Below are positions 39,323 through 61,553 of a stretch of 64,000 nt of DNA, in pieces; the first letter of the stretch is position 1, and each line of letters begins with the position of its first letter. The stretch is from an uncultured Actinomycetota bacterium (GTDB lineage Bacteria; Actinomycetota; Actinomycetes; Streptosporangiales; Streptosporangiaceae): assembly GCA_963787665.1 (NCBI GenBank), contig CAWBDZ010000011.1:910774-974773 (forward strand), given 5' to 3'. The notes below the pieces were generated by a model. The model saw nothing but the letters and a program-made list of their open reading frames with translations. It was not told the origin of the DNA and did no database searches. Position numbers and translations under genes: made by a program.

Positions 39323-39338
39323 CTCAGCCAGCCGCTGG

Positions 39339-43660: not shown

Positions 43661-43675
43661 GACATGCTCCGATGG

Positions 43676-45200: not shown

Positions 45201-46514
45201 TCATGACGACCCGCCGAGGCCGGCCACTGGTTGGTCGGCCGCCCGGATGGTCAGGGCAGCGCTCGCCGCGTCGAGCGCGTGCAGGCAATCGGCGGTTGTC
45301 TGGGCGACGGCCGTTGCCATCGCGATCCGCCCGGACATCGTGCCTTTAGGGGGCGGTGACTTCACATCGCCTGGCTTGGCGAGCACGATCGTCAGGTCGG
45401 CGGCGGGCGGCAGGCCGGCGGTGCCGAACCCGATCTCGCCGATCGTGGTGTCGTCGCTGGCCACGTAGAAGAAGCGCACGGCGCCCACCAGCTGGCGGTC
45501 GGCCTTCAGTTCTGGCCGCTGACCGCATGCCACCGCGGCCGCGGCCAGTCCGGGATCGATGCCGGTTGCGCGCATGCCGAGGTACGGGATCAGGTCACCG
45601 CCCAGCCGGGCGTTCACCTCGATGAGCATCGGCCCGTCGGGCGTGAGCCTAAGCTCGGTATGAGTCATGCCGTCGGTAAAGCCCACCGCCGCATGTGCAT
45701 CTCGCAGCACCCGCAGCAGGTCAGCGTCGGCGAGCAGCGGATCACCGGCATCGACGATGTGGCCAACTTCCTCGAAGTAAGGCGGATAGCCGATCTGTTT
45801 GCGGGCCAGGAACATCGGCAGCACCTCGCCGTCGTAGACCGCGGCGTCCACGCTGACCTCCGGGCCGGTCACGTATCGCTCGATCAGGACGCCCGCGTCA
45901 TAGCGCCAGGACCCCGGTACAGCGTTGTCCCTGACGAACGGGAACCTTGCGGCAAGTTCCTCCGGCCCGTCCGCACGCACGACGCCGAGGCTGCCGCCCA
46001 TCGCCCTGGGCTTGAGCACTACCGGGTAGCCGATCTGATCAGCGGCTGCGAGTGCCGAATCTAGCTCGGCTACCAGGACTGACGTGGGCTGGGGTGCGCC
46101 GGCCGCAGACAGCGCACGCCGGGTCAGGTGCTTATCACGGCACCGCATTACCATGTCGGGGTCGCCGCCGGGCAGACCGAGCGCGGCAGCAACCTTTGCG
46201 CTTTGCAGAATGCGTGCCTCGTCCCAGCTCAGCACGCCGCTGACGGCCTGCGCGGCGGCGAGTCGCAGCGCTGCCGCGCACATCTCATCGGCGCCGATGG
46301 TGTCGGCCATGCCGTCCAGCACGGTCCAGCCATCGACGTAGCCGAGTTCCCAGCTCGGCTCCGCGCCGAGGAACAGGTGCACGCGGTACTGCGAACTGAT
46401 GGATCGCAGCAGGTACTCACGGTAGTTCCGGCCGCCAGTAGAGATCAGTAGCAGTAGCGGGCGGTTGTCGCTCGCTGCGGTGCGCAGACCCGCCGCCTGA
46501 CTCGCCTCGGTCAT
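45201..46514 (-). CDS. ATP-grasp domain protein (L-amino-acid-ligase-like)
   Basis: In-frame ATG 46512-46514 (MTEASQAAG...) overlaps (ATGA) the upstream stop. CRDKHLTRRALSAAG, IGYPVVLKPRAMGGSLGVVRA, VLIERYVTGPEVSVD, MLIEVNARLGGD. Confidence 0.8.
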   Translation of the reverse strand: MTEASQAAGLRTAASDNRPLLLLISTGGRNYREYLLRSISSQYRVHLFLGAEPSWELGYVDGWTVLDGMADTIGADEMCAAALRLAAAQAVSGVLSWDEARILQSAKVAAALGLPGGDPDMVMRCRDKHLTRRALSAAGAPQPTSVLVAELDSALAAADQIGYPVVLKPRAMGGSLGVVRADGPEELAARFPFVRDNAVPGSWRYDAGVLIERYVTGPEVSVDAAVYDGEVLPMFLARKQIGYPPYFEEVGHIVDAGDPLLADADLLRVLRDAHAAVGFTDGMTHTELRLTPDGPMLIEVNARLGGDLIPYLGMRATGIDPGLAAAAVACGQRPELKADRQLVGAVRFFYVASDDTTIGEIGFGTAGLPPAADLTIVLAKPGDVKSPPPKGTMSGRIAMATAVAQTTADCLHALDAASAALTIRAADQPVAGLGGSS

Positions 46515-46855
46515 TGCGCGATCTCCTCGATCCGCGACACGCCAGTGTCCCCATCCAGCCGCTGCCAGTGCTCGACCAGCACGATCCGGCCATCCGGCAG
46601 CATCTCTGGCGTACTCACGCAGCCGCCGGCAATCGTCGTACCGTTGGCCGTCACCATGCAGTAGGCGGCGTCGATGACGCCATCGGGCCTGCAGGTACCG
46701 ACCAGCCGGCCAGCCCGGACCGCCGAGCCGGAGAAGTCCGCCCACACCAGGTCGCCTGCCTGGTGGTACTGACCTACCGATGTCCAGGTCCCGTCCGGGC
46801 CGGGCTGGTCGCCCGCTGGCCGGAACCAGCGTCCGCCATAGCTGATCGGTGACAT
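46511..46855 (-). CDS. small conserved beta-barrel (lipocalin-like) protein; from memory, this family is often annotated as 'N-acetylglutamate synthase'
   Basis: MSPISYGGRWFRPAGDQ...VGQYHQAGDLVWADFSGSAVRAGRLVGTCRPDGVIDAAYCMVTANGTTIAGGCVSTPEMLPDGRIVLVEHWQRLDGD. Pattern recalled from about 110-aa bacterial proteins. Start chosen at ATG 46855 because upstream codons have atypical low GC3. Confidence 0.45.
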   Translation of the reverse strand: MSPISYGGRWFRPAGDQPGPDGTWTSVGQYHQAGDLVWADFSGSAVRAGRLVGTCRPDGVIDAAYCMVTANGTTIAGGCVSTPEMLPDGRIVLVEHWQRLDGDTGVSRIEEIAQ

Positions 46856-46974
46856 GGCTACATCGCCGATTGAACCTGTCATGGCCTGCTCTGGTGCGCT
46901 GGCGTCGGCCTGCAGATCATCGTTGACCTTTCCTTCGTCCGCGTTAGTACCTGGCAACTCACCGAAAACGTCCG

Positions 46975-48345
46975 TCAGAGGCCCAACACCACCGGATCCG
47001 GTTTCCGGCCGGCCAGCGCCGCCAGCGCTGCCGAACTCGTTCCGGCCCCGGCTGCCAGGGCACCAAGTAAGCAACGGACGGCGAGCGCCGAATCGAATCC
47101 GGCCAGCTGGAGCGCGCGCTCGGCTCGTTCGAGCTCGGCGGGCGCTAGCTCTGGCGGTCGGCCCGGTCCGGCCGGCAGCTCGCCGCGAAGCAATGGTCCG
47201 ACGTACTCGCAGAAGGCCAGGTAGGACTCCCGGGTGAAGTCGCTCTCGTACCGGTCCGGACGGTCGAAGGACAAGTAGAGCCGGACGAGCTCGGGATCCT
47301 CGGTGGCCAGGAATTCATTTGCCCACAGCGCATGATTACGGCTGGTGGAGAACTTCTGGCCGTCCAGCAGGTACAGCTCGTTGACAGTTGCCCCGCGCAG
47401 CAGCGGCCTGCTGACTCCGGCGGCGGCAAGAATCGCCGGGTACAAGACCGTGAAGTAGAACGCGTTGTCGATGCCGTTGAAATGCCATACGCCGTCGACA
47501 TCATCGAAGGCCCCGATGCGTGCTGCGAGCGTGTCGGCGTCGGGCCGCAGTGCCTTGGCCGGACCGTATATGTAGCTCAGCCCCAGCTCGGTCGGGAAAT
47601 CCAGGCGCAGGCCGGCCAGGTCCTCGTCGCATTCGATGCCCCAGTTGGTGGGGTAGGCGACCGGATAATCCGGCAGCGGGTTGTCGAGGTAATGCGCCAG
47701 GAAGGCCCGGACCCTAGGCGGCAGGTCGGCCAGTTGCCACTCGGCCACAAGGTTCGCGCGGTAATCCTCGAGCGGCAGCACCGGCACGCGGAGCGTCATC
47801 GGCCGCGGGCTGCCGCCACACCATGCGCAGCTGGGATCGATCAGCAACTCGGATGAGGTGAAAGCGCCGCATGGCTCACATGAAAGGCCGTTGGCGCCGC
47901 TGCCGCAGATAGGACACTTGCCGACGACGTAGGCATGGTGCAAGGTGCGGCCGCAGTCGGCGCACTCGTGCATCGTGACCTCTCGGATCGACAGTGCGCC
48001 GCGGGCCATGAGCTCGGCCAGCATGCCGAGCGCTGCCCGTTCGAACTTCGGATCCTGCGGGTCGAGGAAGACGTCGTAGCCAATGCCCGCGAGCTCGAAC
48101 GCCGTTGCTATCTGGCCGCGGAACTTCGCGACCATCTCGACGGGGTCGACGCCAAGGAATTCCGCCTTGAGGTGCACGAAATTCGGATGGACATCAATGC
48201 CTGCCAATGTGAGCACGCGCTCCCCGCGGGATCTGGCGGCTCGGGCCGCGATGTCGGCCGCCAGATACGGACCTGACAAATGACCGATATGCAGCGGACC
48301 GTTGACTGTAGGCTGCGGGATGACGATTACAGTCACGCCTGTCAC
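46975..48345 (-). CDS. methionyl-tRNA-synthetase-like class I ligase paralog (catalytic domain only)
   Basis: 456 aa. HIGH motif (NGPLHIGHLSG), MetRS-type Zn knuckles (CADCG...CPICG...CEPCG...CAWCG), degenerate KMSKS (KFSTSRN). Too short to carry a full anticodon-binding/C-terminal domain. GTG start preceded by GGGAAGGGAGA. Confidence 0.8.
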   Translation of the reverse strand: MTGVTVIVIPQPTVNGPLHIGHLSGPYLAADIAARAARSRGERVLTLAGIDVHPNFVHLKAEFLGVDPVEMVAKFRGQIATAFELAGIGYDVFLDPQDPKFERAALGMLAELMARGALSIREVTMHECADCGRTLHHAYVVGKCPICGSGANGLSCEPCGAFTSSELLIDPSCAWCGGSPRPMTLRVPVLPLEDYRANLVAEWQLADLPPRVRAFLAHYLDNPLPDYPVAYPTNWGIECDEDLAGLRLDFPTELGLSYIYGPAKALRPDADTLAARIGAFDDVDGVWHFNGIDNAFYFTVLYPAILAAAGVSRPLLRGATVNELYLLDGQKFSTSRNHALWANEFLATEDPELVRLYLSFDRPDRYESDFTRESYLAFCEYVGPLLRGELPAGPGRPPELAPAELERAERALQLAGFDSALAVRCLLGALAAGAGTSSAALAALAGRKPDPVVLGL

Positions 48346-49054
48346 GGTGTCTCCCTTCCCGCTGCCAGGATGGCCACTGCATCCGTCCCGGCGTTGGGCG
48401 CATTAGTCGAGCCTCCATTGGCTCGTGACTTATCCCGGGGAACTAGCAAAATAAGCGCGCTTGCGCCGAACACCAAACGCGCGGGAACGGCCACGGTGGT
48501 CAGACCGTTGAACGTGGGTCACATTCGCTCGGTCAGCATGACAGCCTGTCGGGACGCCTAGCAGCACTCACGTGAATGGCAGAGCCACCACTCCCCTCAG
48601 TCGCACTTGGCGAGCGCGTCGTATTACAAATCGGTGAAGATCGAGTTCGTTTGGGAGTCTACGACGCCATTCGAGTCCTGCCAAGCCCCTGATTAGCAGC
48701 CAATCCTGTCCAGTCGCAGTGGCATCAACGGATGCATTGGTCCGATTAATTTTCTTCAGCGTCTCGTTGCCTCTTGCGGCAACGTCTGTCACAAGAGTTT
48801 GCAGACCATCTTGGCATTGCGGCGAGCAGCGACGGCGGTTAGCCTTCTCGCAGAATGGCTGCAAGGCCGGGCGTCTTGCCGTGGCCACAGCCGGTAGCGA
48901 CGCTGCTGCCCGGAAGGGGTGGTGCAGGCAACCGCCGGAGAACGGGTAGTCAAGAACGTTCGGAATGGGCAGTGACGGAATGCCGCACGGCCTGCCCTGC
49001 ACTATATCCAAGTGCTTTAAGCGCCAGCTCGCCGGAGAAGTCAAGGAGGCCTGG
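48346..49054. promoter_or_regulatory. about 700-bp comparatively AT-rich divergent intergenic region between the two cluster operons
   Basis: No ORF with genome-typical GC3. Visibly lower GC (e.g. ccgattaattttcttcagcg). Flanked by outward-facing starts at 48345 (-) and 49055 (+). Confidence 0.6.
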
Positions 49055-49771
49055 GTGAGTCACGCAGATTCGGCCCGAGACGCTGCTGCCATTCCATTGT
49101 GGAATGACGCCTACGATCAGGCTCACCTGCAGGACCATGAGAATCTGTGGGGGGACCCGCCGGTTCCGTTCGCATTGACGGCGGCGCAGTTGTTCGCCAC
49201 CGGTGCCGCTGCTGTGATTATCGACTTGCCATGCGGTGACGGCCGGAACCTGCCGCCCCTAGCCGACGGCGCACCTATTGTGCTAGCGGGCGACACCTCG
49301 GTCAAGGCGATGGTCATTGCCGAAGGCGTGACGAACCGGGCTGGCATCAGGCACAAGGTGGTCTTCACCAGGACTGACGTCTTCGCCACTGGACTGCTCG
49401 ATGATTCCGTGGATGGCGTCTTCTGCTGGGACCTGCTTGGTCATCTGACCAACGCCGCTGATGCGCTTCGCGAGCTGTACAGGATCACTCGGCCAGGCGG
49501 CTGCATTGTGGCCAACATGTGGACCATGAACGACTGCCAGACTTCCGACCCGAATATCCGGGAAATCGCGCCGAAGGAATATATCGATCATTTCGACTTT
49601 TACTGCAGGTTCTACGATCGAGACGACATTACGGGGCTACTGGCGTCGGTCGGGATGACCGCCGAGTCGGTGGCGGTGTCCGCCTGGCGGGAGCCAGGTC
49701 ACGCGGACTACCGGACGTACGAGCACGATCACGAGAGCCTGGTCTTCGTCATCAGGAAGCCCAGGATCTGA
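49055..49771 (+). CDS. class I SAM-dependent methyltransferase
   Basis: VIIDLPCGDGRN (motif I), DGVFCWDLLGHL, RPGGCIV. GTG 49055 is preceded by AAGGAGG at optimal spacing (the track start 48965 is unlikely). Confidence 0.8.
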   Translation: MSHADSARDAAAIPLWNDAYDQAHLQDHENLWGDPPVPFALTAAQLFATGAAAVIIDLPCGDGRNLPPLADGAPIVLAGDTSVKAMVIAEGVTNRAGIRHKVVFTRTDVFATGLLDDSVDGVFCWDLLGHLTNAADALRELYRITRPGGCIVANMWTMNDCQTSDPNIREIAPKEYIDHFDFYCRFYDRDDITGLLASVGMTAESVAVSAWREPGHADYRTYEHDHESLVFVIRKPRI

Positions 49772-49822: not shown

Positions 49823-50824
49823 GTGGGCGCGCGTGATCTCCGGCCGGCCGATGGTGACGAAGGTTATCGGACACGGCAGTTTGGCGTCGGGATCGGCTAT
49901 GCCCCGGCCCACCACGGCGAACTGCTGCAGGGCATCTTCGATGATGGTGCGGGGCACCTGCGCCGGGCGCTTGTCACCTTGCCGCAGCGGGGGCGGGGTA
50001 GCCGCGCGGTGTTCAGGCCGAGCGGGAATCACTGGGGCGTTGTCGGAACGCCGGAACTTGTGAAGGTGAGGCGCGCGGCGGTACTCGCGCTGCGCGAGTT
50101 CGCCACCCACCCGGCCCCGGTCAAGGGCGGCCAGATCGAGATCATCAGGGACTTCCCGCTGGGCGTGGGGATGGGCTCGTCGACCAGTGACGTCACCGCG
50201 ACGATCCGCGCGGTTGCTGATTTCCACGGTGTCATGCTGTCGCGCGAAGAAGTTGGCCGGCTGGCTGTGCTGGCTGAGGTTGCCTCGGACTCGATCATGA
50301 TCGATGACCGTGTCGTGCTTTTCGCCCACCGCGACGGGCAGGTACTGGAGACGTTCGGTCACCGGCTGCCGTCCATGATCGTCGTTGGTTGCGATACCCA
50401 GCCAGGATCGGTCGTCGACACTCTCGGCCTGCAGCAGGCTGACTACAGCAGCCGGGAAGTGGGAGCTTTTCAGGTCTTGCGTGGTGCGATCCGGCGAGCA
50501 ATCGCGACCGAGGATGTGGCGCTGCTGGGCCGGGTGACGACGGCAAGCGCCCGTATCAACCAGCGATTCCTGGCCAAGCCCGCGCTGGAGACCCTGCTCG
50601 AGCTGAACCTTCGGCTCGGCGGCTGCGGCATCCAGGTCGCGCATAGCGGCACTGTAGCCGGGCTGATCTTCGACTCGAGGCTGCCCGGAATCGAGGCCAC
50701 GGTCGAGCGCTGCGTCACGGGTATCAACGAGATTGGCCTCGCGATGACCGCGGTGATCAGTCCGCAGCCTGCAGCGGGCGGCAGCGCGCCGCCAGTGCCG
50801 GTCACTGCGATGGTGTCGGCGTGA
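49823..50824 (+). CDS. GHMP-family kinase (PduX/L-threonine-kinase-like)
   Basis: 333 aa. N-terminal APAHHGELLQG and GHMP motif II PLGVGMGSSTSDVTA. Confidence 0.7.
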   Translation: MGARDLRPADGDEGYRTRQFGVGIGYAPAHHGELLQGIFDDGAGHLRRALVTLPQRGRGSRAVFRPSGNHWGVVGTPELVKVRRAAVLALREFATHPAPVKGGQIEIIRDFPLGVGMGSSTSDVTATIRAVADFHGVMLSREEVGRLAVLAEVASDSIMIDDRVVLFAHRDGQVLETFGHRLPSMIVVGCDTQPGSVVDTLGLQQADYSSREVGAFQVLRGAIRRAIATEDVALLGRVTTASARINQRFLAKPALETLLELNLRLGGCGIQVAHSGTVAGLIFDSRLPGIEATVERCVTGINEIGLAMTAVISPQPAAGGSAPPVPVTAMVSA

Positions 50825-51924
50825 TGAGCATCAGAACTAGCTACGCCGAAGCCACTGACGCCTATCAGCTGCCGCGTCTGATCAGGTTGACCGCCAATCT
50901 CTATGCCGCCAGCTTCACCTTGATGAAGATGATCCCGGCCCGTTACATCCTGCGCCAGGCCGCAGCTCTCGGGACGCTGGAACCAGGCGCGGTCATCACG
51001 GAGACAACCTCGGGCACCTTCGGGCTCGCACTGGCGATGCAAGCCGTGCATATGGGCCACCCCCTGATCCTGGTCAGCGATCCCGTCATCGACGAGCGGC
51101 TTTACCGCAGGCTGACTGACCTGGGTGCAGTCGTGGACCGGGTGCCCGCCTCGGCGAGTGCGATGGCCGGCGGGTTCCAGGCCGCGCGCCTGCAGCGGCT
51201 TGCCGAGATACGCGCGGAGCACGAGCTCACTTTCTGCCCCGAGCAGTACTCGAATCCGGATAACCCGCGCTCGTACGCCACTGTCGCCGAGCTGTTCCTG
51301 GAATGCCTGGGTCAGGTCGACTGCATGGTGGGCCCGGTCGGATCTGGCGGCTCCATGTGCGGGACGGTGACCGCACTGCGATCCATCATTCCGGAGTGCC
51401 GCGCCATCGGGGTCGATACTCACGGGAGTGTGCTATTCGGACACGCCGACGGCCCGCGTGAACTGCGCGGAATGGGCATGAGCCTGATGCCAGCCAACTT
51501 GGATCACCGGGTCTTCGACAGCGTGCACTGGTGCGCGCCCGGGCCGGCTTATCTGGCCACCCGGCAGTTGCACCGCCAGCACGCGCTGTTCATGGGACCG
51601 TCCAGCGGCGCCGCCTACCTGGTGGCTCTGTGGTGGGCGAACGCCAACCCGGGTGCCGTCACCGTGGTCATGCTGCCCGACGAGGGATACCGCTACCAGG
51701 ACACCGTCTATGACGACGAATGGCTGCGGGCGCACGGACACACTGATCAGCCGCTGCCGGCCGACCCGGTGACCGTCGCCGATCCGGCCCGGCCGGAAGG
51801 CAACTGGACCGAGTACAACTGGGCACGCCGCTCATACGCCCAGGTGCTCGCAGCGCAGGCCGAGCGGTTGGGCGCTCAGATTGCCGACAGCGAACCGGTC
51901 GCGGGCCAGGTGAGCGCGCGTTGA
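50821..51924 (+). CDS. PLP-dependent fold-type II enzyme (cysteine synthase / SbnA-like beta-replacement enzyme)
   Basis: 367 aa. FTLMKMIPA (candidate PLP Lys), ETTSGTFGLALA, GPVGSGGSMCG, GPSSGAAY. Overlaps both neighbours by 4 nt. Confidence 0.75.
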   Translation: MMSIRTSYAEATDAYQLPRLIRLTANLYAASFTLMKMIPARYILRQAAALGTLEPGAVITETTSGTFGLALAMQAVHMGHPLILVSDPVIDERLYRRLTDLGAVVDRVPASASAMAGGFQAARLQRLAEIRAEHELTFCPEQYSNPDNPRSYATVAELFLECLGQVDCMVGPVGSGGSMCGTVTALRSIIPECRAIGVDTHGSVLFGHADGPRELRGMGMSLMPANLDHRVFDSVHWCAPGPAYLATRQLHRQHALFMGPSSGAAYLVALWWANANPGAVTVVMLPDEGYRYQDTVYDDEWLRAHGHTDQPLPADPVTVADPARPEGNWTEYNWARRSYAQVLAAQAERLGAQIADSEPVAGQVSAR

Positions 51925-53420
51925 CGGGGACCGGACGGCTGCTGGGTGAACTCGGGCCGTGGACCCAGCGCGTCGTCTATGGCGAGCTAACTCAGGCCGA
52001 CATCGATGCTGAACTGCCGCTGATGGTGCAGGTCGATCAGGCGCATCTGGTCATGCTCGCGGAGCAGGAGCTTATCCCGGCGGCAGCCGCTGCGGATTTG
52101 CTGCGCTGCATTGACGCGCTAGCGGCGCAGCGGTTCGCACCGCTGCTTCAACGGCCAGCGCCGCGCGGCCTCTATCTCATGTACGAGGGCTACCTCATCG
52201 AGCAACTCGGCGCCGACATCGGCGGCGTGCTGCACTCCGGCCGGTCCCGGAACGATCTGAAGGCAACGATCACGAGCCTGCGACTTCGGGCCTGGCTGCT
52301 GGGTTTCACTGCGCAGGCAGTCCGGCTCGAGGCGGTGCTGCTGTCCAGGGCCCGGGCCTACCGGGCGATCGTGATGCCTGCCTACACCCACTTCCAGGCA
52401 GCGATGCCAGTCACCTATGGCTACTACCTGCTCGGGATAGCTATCGCGCTCGGCCGTGAGATCGACGCGCTGCAATCTGCCGCGGCGGGTCTGCAGGCCA
52501 GTCCGCTCGGCGCGGCGGCTGTGGCCGGCACCGATCTGCCGATCGACGCCGGTCGCACGGCACGGCTGCTCGGATTCTCCGGCCCGCATGGCCACGCGCT
52601 GGATGCCGTGGCGAGCAGGGATGTACCGCTGCGGCTACTCGCCGCTGCCACCGGGGCGGGAATCGTGCTGAGCCGCCTGGCGACCGACCTCCAGCTATGG
52701 AGCACATTTGAATTCGGCCTGATCAGCTTTCCGGACCGGCTAGTCGGCGGCAGTTCTGCGATGCCGCAGAAGCGCAACGCTTTCCTGCTCGAGCATGTCA
52801 AGGCGAAGGTGGGTCACGCTCTTGGTGCCTGGGCCGGCGCTGCGGCGATGATGGCAGCCGCGCCGTTCACGAACTCGATCGAGGTCGGCACCGAAGCGAT
52901 GGCCGGCATCTGGCCCGGCCTGCTAGCCGCAGAGCAGAGCGTGCTGCTTGGTCAGGTGCTCGTGAGCGGCGCCCGGCCCGCTGCGGCTCGCATGATGCAG
53001 CGTGCCCAGACAGGGTTCACCACCGCGACGGCGGTGGCCAACCGCCTGGTCCGCTGCGGCGTCCCCTTCCGCACTGCGCACCACATGGTCGGTGACGCGG
53101 TGCGTCAGGCGGTGGAAGCCGGTTCGACCGAGCTGGCTGACTTCGGCCCGCCAGGCTGGCTGGACCGGATCGAGCTAGCCGATCTTGATTTGCCATCGGT
53201 TGTCCGCGCGCACGTGCACGGCGGCGGTCCGGGCGCGTTCGCTGACTTGTTCAGTAACGCTGTGCAGGCGTGGACGCATCACCATGACTGGCTGAACGCG
53301 TGGCGAGCGAACGACGTCGCGGCGGGAACGATGCTTGCCGCGGCCGTCCAGCAGTTGTCCGGCAGCCTTCTTCGATCGGCTGAGCCTGAGGTCGCCGCTG
53401 ACCGGGAGCGCGCGCGGTGA
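51921..53420 (+). CDS. argininosuccinate-lyase-like (fumarase/aspartase superfamily) lyase
   Basis: 499 aa. HSGRSRNDLKAT, MPAYTHFQAAMPVT, GGSSAMPQKRN signature, and GVPFRTAHHMVGDAV, which closely parallels the E. coli ArgH segment GVPFREAHHIVGEAV. Confidence 0.8.
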   Translation: MTGTGRLLGELGPWTQRVVYGELTQADIDAELPLMVQVDQAHLVMLAEQELIPAAAAADLLRCIDALAAQRFAPLLQRPAPRGLYLMYEGYLIEQLGADIGGVLHSGRSRNDLKATITSLRLRAWLLGFTAQAVRLEAVLLSRARAYRAIVMPAYTHFQAAMPVTYGYYLLGIAIALGREIDALQSAAAGLQASPLGAAAVAGTDLPIDAGRTARLLGFSGPHGHALDAVASRDVPLRLLAAATGAGIVLSRLATDLQLWSTFEFGLISFPDRLVGGSSAMPQKRNAFLLEHVKAKVGHALGAWAGAAAMMAAAPFTNSIEVGTEAMAGIWPGLLAAEQSVLLGQVLVSGARPAAARMMQRAQTGFTTATAVANRLVRCGVPFRTAHHMVGDAVRQAVEAGSTELADFGPPGWLDRIELADLDLPSVVRAHVHGGGPGAFADLFSNAVQAWTHHHDWLNAWRANDVAAGTMLAAAVQQLSGSLLRSAEPEVAADRERAR

Positions 53421-54676
53421 CGTCAGGCTGGTTCGTGCTCGTGGAGAGCAACACCACCGGGTCAGGCAGGCTGTTCTGCGAACGCGCTCGCAAGCTCGGG
53501 CTCGTTCCGGTCATGCTCGCTCGCGATCCGGGCAGGTATCCGTACCTACGCCGGGACGCCATCGAAGGGCGGCTAGCCGACACCGCCGACCCGGATGCGC
53601 TGCTGGCGGCCTGCGCGAAGCTCGGCGGCCGGATCGCTGGGGTCACGAGCAGCTCGGAATACTTCATCGGGATAGCGGCGCAGGTCGCCCGGTCGCTCGG
53701 GCTGCCGCACCCCGACCCGGCCGCCATCGCGTGCTGCCGGGATAAGCAAGCACAGCGAACCCGGTTCCGCCGAGCCGGCCTGCCGTGCCCGGCGTACGAA
53801 GCCGCGAGCACCGCCAAAGATGCCGTCGCCACGGCGCGCCGGATTGGGCTGCCGGTCGTGGTCAAGCCGATAGCCGGATCCGGCTCAGTGGGCGTGCGGC
53901 TTTGTGCGAGCCTGGCCGATGTCGCAGCGGCGGCCGGCCACGTTCTCGGCTCCGATGCTGCCGCGTTAGGCCTTCCGCCGCAGGGATCGGTGCTGGTAGA
54001 GCAATTGCTTGACGGGCCGGAGTATTCGGCCGAGGTGCTCGGTGGCGAACTGGTAGGCATCACCCGGAAGTGGCTGGGACCGTTGCCTTACTTCGTCGAG
54101 ATCGGCCATGACTTTCCGGCACCGCTGCTGCCTGCGGAGCAGACGCTGATCCGGCATGCTGCGCTGGCTGGGCTGCACGCCGTGGGCCTGAACTCTGGCG
54201 CTGCTCACATTGAGCTGCGACGCACTTCGAGCGGCCCGGTCATCGTGGAGATCAATCCGCGGCTGGCCGGAGGCATGATCCCGCGCGCGGTGCAGGAAGC
54301 CACCGGCATCGACATGATCCACCATGTGGTTGCGCAAGCGGCTGGTGTCACCGATCCGCCAGCGCCGACCAGATCCGCAGCGGCTTCGATCCGGTTCCTG
54401 ACCGCGCAAACAACGGGCCGGCTGGCGGCCATCACCGGGATTGAGCTGGCACGGCAGTTGCCCGGGGTCGTCGAGGTGGGCCTCACCTGCGAGATCGGGC
54501 AGCCGGTAGAGGTGCGGCACTCCTTCTCCGACCGTCTCGGATACGTGATCGCGGCGGCAGATTCCGGGCCAGCCGCGGCGCGCGCCGCCGAAGCAGGGCT
54601 GGCCGCATTGGACGCGCAGATCGCGCCGACCGACTCCGGCTACTCCCGCGCGCGGGCGCGGGCGGTGCGACCATGA
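53417..54676 (+). CDS. ATP-grasp domain protein (L-amino-acid-ligase-like)
   Basis: 419 aa. CRDKQAQRTRFRRAG, IGLPVVVKPIAGSGSVGVRL, VLVEQLLDGPEYSAEV, VIVEINPRLAGG. Confidence 0.8.
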   Translation: MTSGWFVLVESNTTGSGRLFCERARKLGLVPVMLARDPGRYPYLRRDAIEGRLADTADPDALLAACAKLGGRIAGVTSSSEYFIGIAAQVARSLGLPHPDPAAIACCRDKQAQRTRFRRAGLPCPAYEAASTAKDAVATARRIGLPVVVKPIAGSGSVGVRLCASLADVAAAAGHVLGSDAAALGLPPQGSVLVEQLLDGPEYSAEVLGGELVGITRKWLGPLPYFVEIGHDFPAPLLPAEQTLIRHAALAGLHAVGLNSGAAHIELRRTSSGPVIVEINPRLAGGMIPRAVQEATGIDMIHHVVAQAAGVTDPPAPTRSAAASIRFLTAQTTGRLAAITGIELARQLPGVVEVGLTCEIGQPVEVRHSFSDRLGYVIAAADSGPAAARAAEAGLAALDAQIAPTDSGYSRARARAVRP

Positions 54677-56577
54677 CGCGGCTCACGACGGCGCCTGTTT
54701 CGGTGGCGATCATCGGCCTGGGCTCGCGCGGGCTCAGCGTGCTCGAGCGGATCGTGACGCTTGCCCGGCTGGGCGGACTGGCGCCGGGCCAGGTCCAGGT
54801 CGAGGTCATCGACCCGGCCTGCACCGGCGCGGGTGTGCATGATCTCAGCCAGCCCGACTATCTCCTGCTCAACACCACTTGCTCGCAGGTTTCGATGTTT
54901 CCCGATTCGTGCACGGTGGGAGCAGACACCGGTTCGGCCGGGCCGAGCCTGCATGCCTGGGTTGCCGAGCGGGGACTCCGGCTGGCAGCAGACGGCTATA
55001 CGGTCGGCCAGACCGGCCGGCCGATCAGGCCGACCGACTTCCTGCCGCGCCGCCTGCTCGGCGAATATCTCAGCTGGTTCTTCGGCCAACTGCGCGCGCA
55101 GGCGGCCGGCCACGTACTGCTGAACATGCACGCAGCGACCGCGGTTGACCTTTCGCCTGCAGCTGACGACAGGCTGTTGGTCAGCTTGTCGGACGGCAGC
55201 TGCGTTCAGGCGAGCCAGGTGTTCCTCACCACCGGTTACACGCCGAACAGCACTGCGCGTGGTCGGTCCGCTCCTCCGCGCCTGATCGCTGAGCCGTACC
55301 CGTTGCCTGAGCGCCTTGCTGGCCTGGCAGCTGGCCAGCCGGTCGCCGTCGCCGGATTCGGCCTGTCGGCGATGGACGTGATGTCGTGCCTGACCGTCGG
55401 CCGTGGTGGTCGATTCGTCAACCGCGACGGCAGCCTTGAATACCTGCCAAGCGGGCACGAGCCCGCGCTGCTGATGTACTCGCGCTCTGGCATACCGTGC
55501 CGGGCCAGGCCGCAGGTTGTCGAGTTCGGGCCGAAGTATGAGCCGCTGGCTTTCACGTCGGCCGGCATCGATGCCGTGCGGGCCCGGCGGCGCGGCCCGC
55601 TCGATTTCGATGCTGACGTGCTGCCCCTGATTCTCGCTGAAATGCGGATCGCCTATCGCCGGTGCCAGGCGCGATGCGCGGGCGGCGACGCCGAGGTGGC
55701 TCTCGACCGAGCGCTCGGCCGGGCAAGTGGCGGTACGGACCTGGCCCGGCTGACGGCCGCGCTCGACGAGATGGACGCGCGGCTAGGGAGATTCGACGCG
55801 GCCGCCACATTAGACGGATCAGCCGGGATGGACCTGGCCGACGCGGCGGCCTATCAGCGCTGGCTGTCGGGCTATGTGTCGGCCGACCTGGCCGAGGGCC
55901 TGTCTGGATTCGCGGGCAGTCCGGTGAAGGCGGCCCTGGACGTGCTGCGGGAGCTGCGCGACACATTCCGGTACGCGGTGGACTTCGGCGGTCTGACGCC
56001 AGCGTCGCTCGACGAGTTCACCAGGCGCACGATACCGGCAGTGAACCGGGCGGTCGTCGGGCCACAATATGAGCGGCATCTTGAGCTCCTCGCGTTGCTA
56101 GCGGCTGGAGTTGCCCGCGTGCCGTTCGGCCCGGCACCTGAGGTAAGGCTGAATCGTGACGCGTGCCGCTGGACGATCCGCGCGACGCGGCTGCGCTCGG
56201 CGTACTCCGCCGAGGTTGACTGGCTCGTTGCAGCCCAGGTCCCGCTGCCGGCGGTTGCCTCATCTGCGAGCCCGCTGCTGGCCTCGCTGCATCGCAAAGG
56301 CTGGATCCGGCCGCACCGGGCGGATAGCACTCTGGTGCGCGGCATCGATATTGACCGCGACCAGCATCCCATTGACGCGGGCGGCGTCCCTGACCACCGG
56401 ATCTGGGTGCTGGGGCCGCTCTGCGAGGGAGCCACTTTCTACAACAACCTGGTCCCATCGCCGAAGATGGCATCGCGGCCGGTCTTCGACGCGCACCGTT
56501 GCGTGAATGCCATGCTCACGGCCAGCCAGTGGCAGCCCGACCGGAAGAGCGACGCGCTCCGCCAGCCCATCGGGTGA
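54673..56577 (+). CDS. FAD/NAD(P)-binding flavoprotein (PF13454-type; possible amine/aspartate N-oxygenase)
   Basis: 634 aa. N-terminal VAIIGLGSRGLSVLERIV dinucleotide fold and a second Rossmann segment VAVAGFGLSAMDV. ATGA overlap with the upstream ATP-grasp gene. Confidence 0.65.
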   Translation: MTRLTTAPVSVAIIGLGSRGLSVLERIVTLARLGGLAPGQVQVEVIDPACTGAGVHDLSQPDYLLLNTTCSQVSMFPDSCTVGADTGSAGPSLHAWVAERGLRLAADGYTVGQTGRPIRPTDFLPRRLLGEYLSWFFGQLRAQAAGHVLLNMHAATAVDLSPAADDRLLVSLSDGSCVQASQVFLTTGYTPNSTARGRSAPPRLIAEPYPLPERLAGLAAGQPVAVAGFGLSAMDVMSCLTVGRGGRFVNRDGSLEYLPSGHEPALLMYSRSGIPCRARPQVVEFGPKYEPLAFTSAGIDAVRARRRGPLDFDADVLPLILAEMRIAYRRCQARCAGGDAEVALDRALGRASGGTDLARLTAALDEMDARLGRFDAAATLDGSAGMDLADAAAYQRWLSGYVSADLAEGLSGFAGSPVKAALDVLRELRDTFRYAVDFGGLTPASLDEFTRRTIPAVNRAVVGPQYERHLELLALLAAGVARVPFGPAPEVRLNRDACRWTIRATRLRSAYSAEVDWLVAAQVPLPAVASSASPLLASLHRKGWIRPHRADSTLVRGIDIDRDQHPIDAGGVPDHRIWVLGPLCEGATFYNNLVPSPKMASRPVFDAHRCVNAMLTASQWQPDRKSDALRQPIG

Positions 56578-56586
56578 TGTCCGGGA

Positions 56587-56648
56587 CTGGCCACTGCCCT
56601 GCTGGCCACTGTCCCTGCTGGCCGCTGTCCCTGCTGGCAGCAGTCCTG
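56587..56648. repeat. 4 x 15-16-bp imperfect tandem repeat CTGGCCACTG(T)CCCTG
   Basis: Units at 56587, 56602, 56618 and 56634, in the gap between the flavoprotein stop (56577) and the HipA-like start (56696). Confidence 0.85.
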
Positions 56649-56695
56649 GCCGGCTGGCACCCGGCGTAAGCTGCGGCCTTGTGCTTCCCCAAGTG

Positions 56696-57517
56696 ATGGC
56701 GACCAGGTATGTGACGCCGCTGCGCGAGGGCGGGTCGCTGCCGGCGGTGATGGAAGCCGACGACCTTGGCACCTACGTGGTGAAGTTCCGCGGGGCTGGT
56801 CAGGGCTTGAAGGCCTTGATCGCGGAGATCATCTGTGCGGCACTGGCGCGAACCTGCGGCCTGCCGGTCCCAGATCTAGTCACGGTTGAGCTGGATCCGG
56901 CGATGGCGCCTGGGGAGCCGGACCAGGAGATCCAGGACCTGCTTCGGGCCAGCGGCGGCCTGAACCTGGGCGTGGACTTCCTGCCTGGTGCGCTGGACTT
57001 CGAGACTGGCGCCGAGACCGTGGCAGCTGGCCTTGCCGGGCAGATCATGTGGTTCGACGCCCTGGTCGGCAACGCTGACCGGTCGTGGCGTAATCCGAAC
57101 ATGCTGCTCTGGCACGGCAGGCTTTACCTGATCGACCACGGCGCGACGCTAACCTTCCAGCACCGGTGGGCCAGCGCGGCATCGGCGGCTGCCCGGCCCT
57201 ACGACGTTTCCGAGCATGCCCTGCTCGGCTGCGGGGCGCTGGTTGCCGACGCCGATGCCAGTCTTGCGCCGCGGCTCACCGAAGCGGCCTTGCGCTCGGC
57301 CGTGCACCAAGTGCCCGACGACTGGCTGACCGGAGAACCGGGCTTTGCCGATGCCGCGGCGCTGCGCAAGGCCTATGTCACGCAGCTGCGAGCGCGGCTA
57401 GCCGCCCGGCCCAGCTGGCTGCCGCCGCTGGCGGCGGCGGCGGAAGCTGGCCTGCGGGGCCCGGGCACCGGCCGGAGCGGCGGACCGGCCCGGCTGACTG
57501 GCGGAGCAGGCCTGTGA
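56696..57517 (+). CDS. HipA-like serine/threonine kinase-fold protein
   Basis: MATRYVTPLREGGSLPAVMEADDLGTYVVKFRGAGQG...FDALVGNADRSWRNPNMLLWHGRLYLIDHGA (kinase catalytic-loop/DxG-like). In-frame ATG 56696 preferred to the track start 56507. Confidence 0.6.
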   Translation: MATRYVTPLREGGSLPAVMEADDLGTYVVKFRGAGQGLKALIAEIICAALARTCGLPVPDLVTVELDPAMAPGEPDQEIQDLLRASGGLNLGVDFLPGALDFETGAETVAAGLAGQIMWFDALVGNADRSWRNPNMLLWHGRLYLIDHGATLTFQHRWASAASAAARPYDVSEHALLGCGALVADADASLAPRLTEAALRSAVHQVPDDWLTGEPGFADAAALRKAYVTQLRARLAARPSWLPPLAAAAEAGLRGPGTGRSGGPARLTGGAGL

Positions 57518-57906
57518 CCGGCCAGCATCCATTCGAATACGCGGTCCTGCGCGTTGTGCCGCGGGTCGACCGCGGCGAGGCGATGAACGCCGGAATACTC
57601 CTTTACTGTCGGCCGCTGCGCTACCTGAAGGCATGGATCGAGCTGGATACCGACCGTCTTCAGGCGCTCGACCCAGCCGCGGACGTCGACGGCATCGAGC
57701 GGGCGCTGGCCGGCATCGTCGCGGTCTGCTCGCAGGATCCGGCGGCTGGCCAGGCTGGGCTGCAGGACATCGGGCGCAGGTTCGGCTGGCTCACGGCGCC
57801 GCGCAGCACGGTGGTGCAACCGGGGCCCGTTCACACAGGGCTGACCAGCGACCCCGACGCCGCCGCAGAGAGCCTGTTGCGCGCGCTGGTACGGCGGCCT
57901 GGCTGA
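57514..57906 (+). CDS. DUF3037-like protein
   Basis: GTG 57514 overlaps (GTGA) the upstream stop. FEYAVLRVVPRVDRGEAMNAGILLYC resembles the DUF3037 N-terminal signature as I recall it. Confidence 0.5.
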   Translation: MTGQHPFEYAVLRVVPRVDRGEAMNAGILLYCRPLRYLKAWIELDTDRLQALDPAADVDGIERALAGIVAVCSQDPAAGQAGLQDIGRRFGWLTAPRSTVVQPGPVHTGLTSDPDAAAESLLRALVRRPG

Positions 57907-58111
57907 ACGGGACGCTAACCACCGCCTACCGAAGTCCGCAAGATGGGCGGCGACCTCGCAGTACAGCACCGCCCCATGGGCCAGGACCGAGGGCCGGCTC
58001 CGCGCGCGCATCGCTAAGCTTGGACAACGTAACGGCCCTGGCAGTCAGCGAGGTCAGCTCACTCGCTGACGGCTTTCCCCCGCCGGGGTGGGTGGAGGGG
58101 AGCAGGCTGCG

Positions 58112-59464
58112 ATGCAGGAAACGAGCGCGCCGGACAGAGGGCAGCCGGTAGCCAGGGTGCGCGGCGGCGGCGATCGCGAGCCACTGAAGGTGGCACTGCT
58201 CGGATGCGGAGTCGTCGGGTCGCAGGTGTACCGGCTGCTGACCGAGCAATCGGCCGACCTGAAGGCCAGAGCTGGCGCGCCGCTGGAAATCGTAGGCGTG
58301 GCAGTTCGGGATCTTGACGGGGCCCGTGCCGTGCCAGTGGCGCCCGGGTTGCTAACTACCGACGGCCTAGAGCTGGTAACCAGGCCGGACGTCGACATCG
58401 TGATCGAGCTGATTGGCGGCATCGAGCCCGCCAGGACGCTGCTGCTGGCGGCGCTCAGCGCGGGTAAGTCGGTCGTCACCGCCAACAAGGCGCTGGTTGC
58501 GTCGGATCGCGCCGTGCTGCACAAGACGGCGAGCCAGGCGGGCGCCGACCTGTACTACGAGGGCGCGGTGGCGGGGGCGATACCGCTGTTGCGCCCGCTA
58601 CGCGAGTCGCTGGCGGGCGACGAGGTCAAGCGGGTGCTTGGCATCGTCAACGGCACGACGAACTTCATTCTCGACAAGATGGATACATCCGGCGCGGACT
58701 TCAGCACCGCGCTGGCTGAGGCTCAAGCGCTGGGCTATGCCGAGGCTGACCCCACCGCGGACGTCGCTGGTTTCGATGCAGCGTCCAAGGCGGCCATCCT
58801 GGCCAGCATCGCGTTCCACACCGAGGTCACCGCCGACGACGTGTACAGGGAGGGCATCCTGTCGGTCACCGCGGCCGATATCGCCAGCGCGAGGGCCCTG
58901 GGCTGCGTGGTCAAGCTGCTGGCCATCTGTGAGCGGGCCAACGGCGGCATCTCGGCCAGAGTGCACCCGGCCATGATCCCGCGTACGCATCCGCTCGCGG
59001 CCGTGCGCGAGGCCTACAACGCAGTCTTTATCGAGGCGGAGTCGGCTGGCAGGCTTATGTTCTACGGGGCTGGGGCAGGCGGGCAGCCGACCGCCAGCGC
59101 TGTCCTCGGCGACATCGTCGCGATCGCCAGGAACCTGCTGGCCGGGCTGCGCGGTCCCGACTCCTCCACCTACGCGCAGCTGCCGCTGGTTCCGATCGGT
59201 GACGCCCGCACCAGCTACTACGTGCAGCTGGACGTGGCCGACCGGCCGGGCGTGCTGGCGCCGGTCGCGGATGCGTTCGCCCAGCAGGGCGTGTCGATAA
59301 AGGCGGTCAGGCAGGAAGGCCGGGGCGAGGACGCGAACCTCATCATCATGACGCACGTGGCCAGGGAGGCTGCGCTGGCCAAGACCGTGGCATTGCTCGG
59401 CGCGATGGAGGCGGTGCGGAACGTTGACAGCGTGATGCGCGTCGAGGCGCTGGAGGGCGAGTGA
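58112..59464 (+). CDS. hom: homoserine dehydrogenase
   Basis: [18 protein letters not shown] fold, [26 protein letters not shown], and a C-terminal ACT domain. ATG 58112 follows GGAGGGGAG. Confidence 0.9.
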
Positions 59465-60537
59465 ACGGCGCGATGACCAGGTCCAAGCCCTGGCGGGGCG
59501 TCATCGCCGAGTACCGGTCCAGCCTCCCGGTCCCCGACGGGGTGCCGGTCGTCTCACTCGGTGAGGGCGGCACGCCGCTGCTGCCCGCGCCAGTGCTCTC
59601 GGAGCTGACCGGCTGCTCGGTGTACCTGAAGGTCGAAGGGATGAACCCCACCGGATCCTTCAAGGACCGAGGCATGACGGTGGCGGTCACGCTGGCGGCC
59701 AGCCGGGGGGCGACCACGGTGATCTGCGCGTCCACTGGCAACACCAGCGCGAGCGCGGCCGCTTACGCGGCCAGGGCCGGCCTCGCCTGCGCGGTACTTG
59801 TGCCCAAAGGCAGCGTGGCGGTTGGCAAGCTGGCCCAGGCGCTCGCCCACGGGGCGCGCTTGCTCCAGGTCGACGGCAACTTTGACGATTGCCTGGAGCT
59901 AGTACGGAAGATCGCGGCCGACTACCCTGTCGCGCTGGTGAACTCGGTGAATACCGAACGGCTGCAAGGCCAGAAGACGGCTTCGTTCGAGATCGTGGAC
60001 GCGCTCGGCGACGCTCCGGATGTGCATTGCCTCCCAGTGGGCAACGCGGGCAACATCGCCGCATACTGGCTCGGTTACCGTGAATACCAGGTCGATGGCA
60101 AGACCCCGAAGACGCCGCGAATGCTCGGCTTCCAGGCAGCAGGCGCCGCCCCGATCGTGGCCGGGCGCCCCGTGGTTGACCCCGTTACCATCGCCACGGC
60201 TATCAGGATTGGTAACCCGGCGTCATGGCATCTGGCCGAGGAAGCGCGCGCAGAATCCGGCGGGCTGATCGGCTCGGTGACCGACGAGCAGATCCTGGCT
60301 GCCTACCGGCTGCTCGCCCAGCGAGAAGGCGTGTTTGGCGAGCCCGCCTCGGCCGCCGGCGTGGCTGGCTTGCTGCAGGCGCGCGCCGAGGGCAGCGTTG
60401 CCGCCGGTTCAGTAGTTGTGTGCACCATCACCGGGCACGGGCTGAAGGACCCTGATACCGCGGTCGCGGGCGTGACCGTTCCGGCGACCGTAGCGGTCGA
60501 CGTAGGTGCGGCAGCGGCGGCGCTGAACTTGCGATGA
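59461..60537 (+). CDS. thrC: threonine synthase
   Basis: [17 protein letters not shown] (PLP Lys), [20 protein letters not shown]. 4-nt overlaps with hom and thrB. Confidence 0.9.
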
Positions 60538-61553
60538 CCAATGGGGAGACCTGGCGCGACGGGCCCGTCACGATCCGTGTCCCAGCCACGAGCGCGAACC
60601 TCGGTCCCGGCTTCGACTCGCTGGGCCTGGCGCTGAGCCTGCACGACACCGTGCAAGCGCAGGTGCTGCCGGGTGGCCTCGATGTGCAGGTGGCCGGGGC
60701 AGGCGCCGGCGAGCTAGACCGCGGCGAGCGCCACCTAGTGGTTAGGGCCATGCGGGCGGCCTTCGCCGCGATCGGCGCTAAGCCGCCTGGCCTTTCGGTC
60801 CGCTGTCAGAACACGATCCCGCAGGGCTACGGCCTTGGCTCATCGGCGGCGGCGATCGTGGCGGGCCTGATCGCCGCTCGGACACTCGCCATCGGCGGCG
60901 AGAAGGCTGAGGTACTGCCGGACCAAGCGCTGTTCGAGTTGGCCTGCGAGCTGGAAGGCCATCCGGACAACGTGGCCGCGTGCCTATACGGCGGGCTAAC
61001 CGTCGCCTGGGAACCGGGCACCGACGGCAGCGGCAGCAGCAGTTTCAGCGGCCGCGGCGTCAGGGCCATAAGGCTGGTGCCGGTAGCCGGGCTCGCTCCG
61101 GTGCTCTGCATCCCGGCGGAGCCACTGCCGACGGTGGCAGCCCGGCAGGCGTTGCCCGCAGAGGTACCGCACGCCATCGCGGCAGACAACGCGGCCAGGG
61201 CGGCACTGCTGATCGCGGCCCTGACAGGCCGGCCGGACCTGCTGCTCGCGGGTACCGAGGACTTCCTGCACCAGCCTTATCGGGCCGCCTCGATGCCGGC
61301 CACCGCAGCGTTGATCGACCGATTGCGGGCGGCAGGGCTCGCGGCAGCCGTGTCGGGTGCCGGACCCGCCGTGCTGGTGCTCACCATGGCGGATCAGCGA
61401 CCCGGTGCCGCCGACGTGCGGACGCTCGCTGCGGAAACGGGTCCGGCCTGGCAGGTGCTGCCGCTGGCGGTTGACGCGGTCGGCGCAACTGTGCTGTCCG
61501 GTCCCGCAGGCCCCGGTCCCGCTCACGGCGCCAGCGGTCCCCCTCTCATCTGA
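60534..61553 (+). CDS. thrB: homoserine kinase
   Basis: [16 protein letters not shown] and GHMP motif [17 protein letters not shown]. Confidence 0.9.

Follow-up and report, generated by a model that had tools for sequence, protein, structure and literature searches.

A probable dabABC-type diamino-acid cassette coupled to a CreE-superfamily flavoprotein beside hydrazine genes of an uncultured actinomycete

Does an operon that places an ArgH-like lyase, an ATP-grasp protein and a large flavoprotein beside genes for hydrazine formation make nitrite, or does it put aspartate to another use? The question arose for a 64,000-nucleotide stretch of contig CAWBDZ010000011.1 (assembly GCA_963787665.1, positions 910,774 to 974,773) from an uncultured bacterium of the Streptosporangiaceae; this whole stretch, about 68% GC and actinomycete-like, is called the window here. 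A first-pass annotation of 51921-56577 had offered two readings. In one, the ATP-grasp protein ligates aspartate and the lyase eliminates fumarate, which installs a nitrogen; in the other, flavoprotein and lyase act as CreE and CreD do, converting aspartate to nitrosuccinate and releasing nitrite. We consider it likely that 49823-54676 is instead a dabABC-type cassette for 2,3-diamino acids in which DabC is split over two genes, and that the flavoprotein behind it is an N-oxygenase of the CreE superfamily, not an aspartate oxidase. The genes concerned are the following:

48965-49771, + strand: methyltransferase dependent on S-adenosylmethionine (Pfam Methyltransf_11/25), opening the conserved operon
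49823-50824, + strand: GHMP-family kinase, DabA-like (Pfam GHMP_kinases_N/C), predicted O-kinase of L-Thr or L-Ser
50821-51924, + strand: pyridoxal phosphate (PLP) enzyme of the cysteine-synthase/SbnA type, DabB-like (Pfam PALP), predicted to catalyze beta-replacement of an O-phospho amino acid with L-Asp
51921-53420, + strand: ArgH-like lyase, 499 aa (Lyase_1 and ASL_C2), equivalent of the DabC C-terminal domain
53417-54676, + strand: ATP-grasp protein of the L-amino-acid-ligase type, 419 aa (ATP-grasp_4 and LAL_C2), equivalent of the DabC N-terminal domain
54673-56577, + strand: PF13454 flavin N-oxygenase of class B type, 634 aa, CreE superfamily, non-aspartate clade (full-length match to 8CP2)

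The three translationally coupled genes reported earlier are present as open reading frames (ORFs) on the + strand, with 4-nt overlaps at the lyase/ATP-grasp (GTGA) and ATP-grasp/flavoprotein (ATGA) junctions, and the lyase motifs quoted at that time, SGRSRNDL and GVPFRTAHHMVGDAV, were found in the translation. A start of the unit at 51921 did not stand, since the PLP enzyme overlaps the start of the lyase by TTGA and the GHMP kinase overlaps the start of the PLP enzyme by GTGA. Consequently, the functional unit covers at least 49823-56577; it probably begins with the methyltransferase gene at 48965.

We compared the lyase with reference sequences taken from the supplement of PMC13411527 (ScCreD, SdCreD, FzmL, AzpD, CMLE, FlcC, ADSL, M. 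tuberculosis ArgH and, for the flavoprotein, ScCreE). Its closest solved structures are true argininosuccinate lyases (E 4.5e-60), and in BLASTP it shares 32% identity with M. tuberculosis ArgH (E 5e-40). The BLASTP comparison with CreD and FzmL that had been proposed earlier gave a marginal result, as ScCreD, SdCreD, FzmL and AzpD were matched only by partial alignments at E 1e-2 to 1e-4, and ArgH is far closer. These four nitrosuccinate lyases share 60-68% identity among themselves and 41.5% with CMLE; ScCreD itself is 41.5% identical to the P. putida enzyme and has a marginal match of 66 residues to M. tuberculosis ArgH. This bears out the caveat attached to the nitrite reading at the outset, namely that the lyase is ArgH-type and that CreD and FzmL lie nearer the CMLE/adenylosuccinate-lyase branch. 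Nitrosuccinate lyases carry the fingerprint E49/H118/D125/H253/R341, and CreD is without the usual general-acid histidine (PMC13411527). The window lyase reads D/H/D/V/N at these positions; the two replaced residues H253 (to V) and R341 (to N) are those at which the CreD mutants H253N and R341A/K are inactive (PMC13411527), and the T-H general acid is kept, in MPAYTHFQ. Both by fingerprint and by general acid, then, the protein falls outside the nitrosuccinate lyases, and judged by its residues it is equipped to protonate a departing amine rather than to release nitrite.

Genome pipelines label such genes argH, and this label, together with the nearest solved structures being bona fide ArgH, would fit a housekeeping argininosuccinate lyase that lies here by chance. 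The score against the argH equivalog TIGR00838 is 270.2 bits, under the cutoff of 279.5, and PFTNSIEVGTE takes the place of the ArgH sequence PLAYNRDLQEDKE (ArgH motif YNRDLQEDK), so that by neither mark does the protein belong to ArgH. PF(T/S)N(S/A)I(E/A)VGTE is common to the cassette lyases described below where ArgH carries PLAYNRDLQEDKE. The gene is overlap-coupled to non-arg genes, its orthologues lie on Streptomyces plasmids within natural-product clusters, and no other arg gene was seen among the window ORFs examined. The chance that this is the housekeeping enzyme is, in our judgment, negligible.

The best NCBIfam match of the lyase was NF002563/PRK02186, an 890-aa fusion model with a cutoff of 625, which it covers at positions 410-885 (420 bits). 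The ATP-grasp protein aligns with positions 3-396 of that model (369 bits), all other ATP-grasp families scoring at most 75 bits. Jointly the two proteins span the fused model from end to end, and their scores together exceed its cutoff; the equation of PRK02186 with DabC rests on a published domain description, not on direct alignment. According to that description, the N-terminal part of DabC is an ATP-grasp domain, and its C-terminal domain resembles argininosuccinate lyase (ASL). DabA is a GHMP-type L-Thr kinase making O-phospho-Thr, DabB, a PLP enzyme similar to cysteine synthase, joins L-Asp to O-phospho-Thr or O-phospho-Ser, and DabC releases fumarate to give (2S,3R)-2,3-diaminobutyrate (Dab) or L-2,3-diaminopropionate (L-Dap) (PMC10906522). 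Other Dab operons encode the two halves of DabC as individual proteins or join them to DabB (Li et al. 2024, PMC10906522). The window supplies a putative counterpart for each activity. Its PLP enzyme has the SbnA family TIGR03945 as best NCBIfam match (199 bits, under the cutoff of 350), and the lyase and ATP-grasp genes are a fresh member of a known system that genome pipelines mis-annotate as argH.

Complete sets of this kind were found at three further loci. On a Streptomyces plasmid with genes for non-ribosomal peptide synthetases (NRPS), a PLP enzyme, 'argH', ATP-grasp, adenylation protein and kinase stand together (L017); on another, with MbtH and ketosynthase genes, the set is kinase, cysteine synthase, ATP-grasp and 'argH' (L018). 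Both are natural-product clusters, and their four-gene sets are 35-62% identical to the window proteins. The PLP enzyme is 62% identical to that of L017 and 49% to that of L018, both beside ASL-like genes; the corresponding values are 56% and 44% for the lyase, 48-49% at both loci for the ATP-grasp protein, and 35% and 45% for the GHMP kinase, whose counterparts are annotated 'kinase'. The third set lies on the Azospirillum oryzae plasmid NZ_CP054617.1 (L023, 2702-8500): kinase, cysteine-synthase-like enzyme, ATP-grasp, DMT transporter and 'argH', behind an Lrp/AsnC regulator and with no other biosynthetic genes at that locus. This layout suggests that in some bacteria the diamino acid is produced and exported in free form.

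By homology to dabABC, the GHMP kinase would O-phosphorylate L-Thr, or L-Ser; the PLP enzyme would exchange the phosphate for the amino group of L-Asp, so that N-(1-amino-1-carboxyprop-2-yl)-aspartate results; and the lyase would expel fumarate to leave (2S,3R)-2,3-diaminobutyrate, or L-Dap if the pathway began with Ser. Aspartate would thus serve as the nitrogen donor and no nitrite would be produced. The first of the two original readings keeps its core, aspartate as donor of nitrogen and an ArgH-like lyase that expels fumarate, and loses the ATP-grasp protein as the enzyme forming the C-N bond, a step that in dabABC falls to the PLP enzyme.

What the ATP-grasp half contributes has been left open for DabC itself, which could not be assayed in vitro (PMC10906522). 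Its catalytic motifs (KP..GSGS.G and E.NPRLAGG) are invariant over 10 cassettes, that of Azospirillum included; apparently it is a constant and catalytically competent part of the cassette, and on its motifs it probably performs real ATP-dependent chemistry. A route of the PurC/PurB type would give it such a role, ligating L-Asp to a carboxylate or carbonyl of an intermediate from which the lyase then removes fumarate, either separately from the PLP step or besides it. The complete motifs across distant cassettes, the fusion of ATP-grasp and ASL-like domains in the PRK02186/DabC family, and the fact that DabC resisted assay and its N-terminal function was never shown all leave room for it. Against this, DabB by itself is sufficient in vitro to join L-Asp to O-phospho-Thr or O-phospho-Ser, and synthetic ACPAA fed to cells expressing DabC gave a Dab-derived product (PMC10906522), which indicates that the substrate of the lyase is the product of the PLP enzyme. 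A kinase and a PLP enzyme also accompany the lyase/ATP-grasp pair every time (L017, L018 and L023). We judge a PurC/PurB-type route improbable and retain the dabABC assignment.

A route of the FzmQ/FzmR type to hydrazinosuccinate, with the lyase acting on a Lys-N6-N-succinate adduct by a chain-length analogy with argininosuccinate, had also been considered and was dropped, as dabABC explains all four genes.

The flavoprotein had a single match in the PDB, 8CP2, the L-Asp N-hydroxylase of Streptomyces sp. V2 (Rotilio et al. 2023, PMC10404684), aligned over its full length (about 600 residues, E 2e-65). It is 35% identical to 8CP2 and 32% to ScCreE, and these two are 55% identical to each other. 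The similarity to CreE-family enzymes that the first-pass annotation had wanted checked is therefore there, at the 32-35% of a superfamily member. The features of the CreE/FzmM fold, that is three domains, motifs for flavin adenine dinucleotide (FAD) and NADPH and the catalytic N62, were all found, and R13, R266, R409, R412 and R416 are retained along with N62.

The substrate site gave a different result. Aspartate is contacted by R13, R276, N413, R416 and R577, W51 packs against the flavin, and the mutation N413E abolishes Asp hydroxylation (PMC10404684). We aligned 244 sequences: the window protein, 119 orthologues (at least 60% identity), 122 representatives of distant clusters, ScCreE and 8CP2. 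The window protein has H/K/D/Y/S at positions 51/276/413/571/577, where both ScCreE and 8CP2 have W/R/N/V/R, so that none of the five signature residues is shared. Its own residues are those of its orthologues, with H51 in 118 of the 119, D or E at 413 in all, Y571 in all and S577 in 118; position 276 is variable. Among the 241 relatives, no sequence carries more than two of the five CreE residues. The entry chamber for aspartate keeps R13 and R416 and differs by R276K, N413D and R577S. N413D is comparable to the inactive N413E, and with the loss of the signature this argues against aspartate as the substrate.

These results bear directly on the ANS-type nitrite reading, by which the flavoprotein would turn L-Asp into nitrosuccinate, the lyase would split this into nitrite and fumarate, and the nitrite would join the hydrazine pathway as in triacsin. 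That the sole relative of solved structure is an L-Asp N-hydroxylase, matched over the full length at E 2e-65, speaks in its favor, as do the retention of N62 and four arginines of the active-site cluster, the fumarase-superfamily lyase two genes upstream in the operon and the adjoining hydrazine genes. The lyase, with its partial and marginal matches to nitrosuccinate lyases, its V and N where the matching CreD mutants are inactive, and the T-H general acid that CreD is missing, does not fit; nor does the flavoprotein, with HKDYS in place of WRNVR. No further CreE-, CreD- or ASL-like gene is present within the 64-kb window, and a known system accounts for the lyase, ATP-grasp, kinase and PLP enzyme together. 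At the level of sequence the nitrite reading is refuted for both proteins, and we hold it to be very improbable for the locus. The idea that hydrazine and nitrite pathways co-occur here loses its support with it, since both lyase and flavoprotein fail the sequence tests.

Two other known pathways had been entertained. Negamycin contains N-methyl-hydrazinoacetate, and a methyltransferase is present here; its genes, which are CreE/CreD/CreM-like with a separate beta-lysine region, bear no resemblance to this locus. A cycloserine-like route, with N-hydroxy-Asp as O-nucleophile followed by the lyase and an ATP-grasp cyclization, is ruled out by a flavoprotein that has no aspartate site and by an ATP-grasp protein that belongs to cassettes without a flavoprotein.

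If not aspartate, what does the flavoprotein oxidize? An exhaustive HMMER search returned 602 clusters (at 50% identity) with E <1e-30, and all of the best 150 scored above 225 bits, the score of 8CP2; the window protein is thus closer to more than 150 clusters than to CreE. The family is a broad N-oxygenase radiation, and on its conserved motifs the window member very probably runs the same kind of NADPH- and O2-dependent N-oxygenation as CreE and FzmM. More than 100 close relatives (at least 60% identity) are in public data, mostly in metagenome-assembled genomes (MAGs) of actinomycetes; an exact-sequence look-up of the flavoprotein gave no match, and a 98%-identical protein is in an ENA metagenome.

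The flavoprotein is fused to an ATP-grasp domain in two proteins (P0086 and P0121), and other relatives are fused to a homoserine O-succinyltransferase domain (P0167), to NUDIX (P0257), or to NUDIX, phosphoenolpyruvate (PEP) mutase and HAD (P0269), the last an arrangement that we take to resemble phosphonate N-hydroxylation of the FrbG/FrbI type. In P0213 the flavoprotein occupies residues 2638-3238 of a 5,264-residue protein, which may be an NRPS, a guess from length alone with its domains unscanned. Around the distant relatives L007, L009-L012 and L024-L026 we found no common theme. A MAG of Arenibaculum sp. (L008, 3033-11833) holds a 38%-identical PF13454 flavoprotein directly after SbnA-like and SbnB-like genes for Dap synthesis, together with cupin, MetRS-like and DAO genes and a fragment of a Lys/Orn oxygenase. 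This proteobacterial cluster has the other (SbnB) diamino-acid route in the same kind of hydrazine context.

The loss of two arginines of the Asp site (R276 and R577) and the invariant acidic residue at 413, with R13, R266, R409, R412, R416 and N62 retained, fit a substrate that has one less carboxylate than aspartate and an additional ammonium group, as a 2,3-diamino acid does. We infer that the flavoprotein may N-hydroxylate, or oxidize further, an amino group of the diamino acid or of a close derivative, and the methyltransferase may then modify the resulting non-canonical amino acid. The substrate is the weakest step of the scheme, as the residue pattern speaks more strongly against aspartate than for a diamino acid.

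Whether the arrangement is more than local was asked of related loci. A scan of genome contigs with one protein returned 12 loci, most of them too distant to inform on context. Eight sister records (L001-L005 and L019-L021) stand for seven distinct places, L002 and L003 being identical in sequence, and derive from MAGs and a single isolate genome, with Longispora, Jatrophihabitans, Frankiaceae and Streptosporangiaceae among them. All seven places repeat the gene order methyltransferase, kinase, PLP enzyme, lyase, ATP-grasp, flavoprotein at 57-90% protein identity, so the arrangement is not chance. The methyltransferase is syntenic in L001-L005 (68-89% identity) and holds the same position in L019-L021. 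A gene for a protein resembling methionyl-tRNA synthetase (MetRS) adjoins the operon in all seven (69-90% identical in L001-L005), and in five of them cupin, DAO or PF13434 genes lie near the operon with one or two further ATP-grasp genes and an MFS transporter. In three of the seven an AlaX-like gene (tRNA_SAD) stands between ATP-grasp and flavoprotein, at 9216-9956 in L002/L003, 9270-10004 in L019 and 9210-9953 in L021; it is absent from the window. In the fuscazine cluster an AlaX-type deacylase guards translation, and tRNA deacylases have been put forward as markers (PMC13149037). Under that idea the sister AlaX genes suggest that the pathway makes a free amino acid open to tRNA mischarging. 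Our literature search found no paper on this cluster family.

In the window the same hydrazine genes occupy the opposite strand, and the 'hydrazine machinery' mentioned in the first-pass annotation is real, comprising MetRS-like, Lys/Orn N-monooxygenase, cupin and DAO genes:

46975-48345, - strand: stand-alone MetRS-like protein (Pfam tRNA-synt_1g), adenylating half of the hydrazine synthetase, divergent to the operon
46514-46858, - strand: small avidin-like ORF with 89% identity to the PF26421 gene of L004
45201-46745, - strand: ATP-grasp ligase 2 (Pfam ATP-grasp_4), ORF probably over-extended at its 5' end, found in L004 and L005 at 72-88% identity
43676-45073, - strand: N-monooxygenase of the Lys/Orn type (Pfam PF13434, E 3e-85)
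43271-43660, - strand: cupin (Pfam Cupin_2, E 2e-16), N-N bond-forming half of the hydrazine synthetase
41849-43219, - strand: ATP-grasp ligase 3, L-amino-acid-ligase type (Pfam ATP-grasp_4 and LAL_C2)
40395-41909, - strand: conserved protein of 504 aa with no Pfam or NCBIfam match, 50% identical to a 446-aa protein of L020
39184-40395, - strand: DAO-type FAD oxidoreductase (Pfam DAO), Spb39/FuzF-like, predicted to release the hydrazino acid, with like genes in the hydrazine sets of L019-L021 and L008

The protein at 40395-41909 is an uncharacterized component of the pathway. The avidin-like ORF is nested in the over-extended ATP-grasp ORF and in an ORF at 46511-47074, and avidin-like genes adjoin the Lys N-monooxygenase in L019 and L020. 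From the architecture of the cluster we infer that the diamino-acid product could feed the lysine-based hydrazine synthetase next to the operon and the additional ATP-grasp ligases, to yield a small hydrazide or hydrazine peptide.

The hydrazine genes also offer the flavoprotein another place. It could oxidize a hydrazino acid or hydrazide (to a hydrazone, diazo or azoxy product), or supply an N-hydroxy amine as N-N donor that replaces N6-hydroxylysine. The Jatrophihabitans place (L002/L003), which keeps flavoprotein and MetRS-like protein with no PF13434 monooxygenase nearby, would agree with this, as would the synthetase Apy9, which uses an N-hydroxylated diamino acid from a dedicated hydroxylase (PMC11705231), and the Arenibaculum relative that sits inside a hydrazine synthetase set. 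Yet five of the six other sister places have a PF13434 monooxygenase of their own, the sixth (L005), which was covered by tblastn only, having none within its flank. Moreover, the flavoprotein is coupled to, and sometimes fused with, the cassette ATP-grasp protein rather than the hydrazine genes, and neither option is directly favored by the evidence. We regard a place on the hydrazine branch as unlikely.

A bolder proposal, held with more doubt than belief, is that the flavoprotein represents a new specificity of the CreE superfamily, an N-oxygenase on the free 2,3-diamino acid (for example on the beta-amino group of 2,3-diaminobutyrate), and that the operon feeds an N-oxygenated, methylated diamino acid to the stand-alone hydrazine synthetase and the ATP-grasp ligases of an undescribed family of N-N/N-O peptides.

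Several points weigh against the scheme or parts of it. All assignments at the locus rest on homology and gene context; the link to DabA, DabB and DabC of B. thailandensis runs through the fused NCBIfam model and the published description; and the kinase is only predicted to act on Thr or Ser. For the flavoprotein, an acidic residue at 413 predominates in the wider family (102 of the 122 representatives), and distant relatives occur in unrelated contexts, among sulfotransferase, aminocyclitol-type, NRPS and PEP mutase genes. Finally, the Jatrophihabitans place keeps the operon and the MetRS-like gene with no cupin, Lys N-monooxygenase or DAO gene within 10 kb.

Other features of the window deserve a brief description. 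Directly 3' of the cassette that is predicted to consume threonine lies a housekeeping-looking hom-thrC-thrB operon (58088-61553, +). This adjacency is repeated in L004 and not in L001, L002 or L019-L021, and because only L004 repeats it, it is probably coincidental. Between the two, behind the flavoprotein, come an ORF for a HipA_2-like kinase and a DUF3037 protein (56507-57906, +); the HipA_2 ORF as listed overlaps the 3' end of the flavoprotein gene by about 70 nt, its true start being probably further downstream, and a HipA_2 gene is found behind the flavoprotein also in L005 and in no other sister cluster. A sensor histidine kinase of 874 aa that carries a NIT domain, for sensing nitrate or nitrite, is encoded at 26238-28862 (-). 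It might tempt one to a nitrite reading; it lies about 10 kb past the MFS end of the cluster and 20 kb from the + strand operon, with Lon, glycosyltransferase, phosphoesterase and other genes between, and was not seen in the sister loci. An unusual ORF at 22795-24282 (+) fuses an AAA_33 kinase-like domain to a luciferase-like monooxygenase domain.

The outcome is mostly corrective, as a reading of nitrite plus hydrazine gives way to a known aspartate-dependent diamino-acid cassette mis-named argH. What is new is that this cassette is fixed to an uncharacterized clade of CreE-like N-oxygenases, aspartate being excluded by the residues of their active site, within an NRPS-free hydrazine cluster. 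Conservation in seven other places and the relatives of the flavoprotein point to an undescribed family of hydrazine or hydrazide peptides related to fuscazine. If the N-oxygenase does act on a 2,3-diamino acid, genes for N-N/N-O peptides would be spread over a wide range of soil actinomycetes, most of them uncultured. This cluster family would also be a handy system for probing the conserved ATP-grasp half of DabC and could show what it does.

Among known systems the cassette stands closest to dabABC, described in B. thailandensis with relatives in friulimicin, pacidamycin and napsamycin biosynthesis (PMC10906522). Both comprise the same four kinds of protein, aspartate as amine donor and release of fumarate are predicted for the window as well, and split DabC halves are already known from other Dab operons. 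Unlike dabABC, the window places the lyase before the ATP-grasp gene, has a methyltransferase in front and a coupled PF13454 N-oxygenase behind, and lies in a cluster without NRPS. The SbnA/SbnB route likewise joins an O-phospho amino acid to an amino acid as amine donor and then releases the diamino acid, but through the NAD-dependent SbnB, with 2-oxoglutarate as the second product, whereas an ASL-type lyase releasing fumarate is present here. The lyase shares with CreD, FzmL and AzpD the aspartase/fumarase superfamily fold, the SS-loop (GSSAMPQKRN) and fumarate as expected product, and differs in belonging to the ArgH branch, theirs being the CMLE branch. The flavoprotein has the two dinucleotide-binding domains and the helical substrate domain of CreE and FzmM; it departs from them by W51H, R276K (variable), N413D, V571Y and R577S, and by the absence of an adjacent CreD-type lyase, the 64-kb window holding the ArgH-type lyase instead.

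As a whole, the cluster looks by its architecture like an uncharacterized relative of the fuscazine hydrazide-peptide cluster. In Fuz of Microbispora fusca a Lys-based hydrazine synthetase turns a non-canonical amino acid made by the cluster into an alpha-hydrazino acid (Millar et al. 2026, PMC13149037), and two ATP-grasp ligases build a hydrazide tripeptide (PMC13149037). The likeness is one of architecture and domain content over 39184-48345 (-), with the same set in L019-L021, and not of protein sequence comparison: both have a Lys N-monooxygenase, cupin, MetRS-like protein and flavin oxidoreductase, two ATP-grasp ligases, no NRPS, an enzyme set for a non-canonical amino acid, and a host in or near the Streptosporangiaceae. 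The AlaX-type deacylase of Fuz has its counterpart in the sister clusters L002, L019 and L021, not in the window. Where Fuz makes its non-canonical amino acid by a single Fe/2-oxoglutarate arginine hydroxylase, the window has the four-gene diamino-acid cassette, the N-oxygenase and the methyltransferase; by analogy, the operon would supply the non-canonical amino acid here, a 2,3-diamino acid that is possibly N-oxygenated and methylated.

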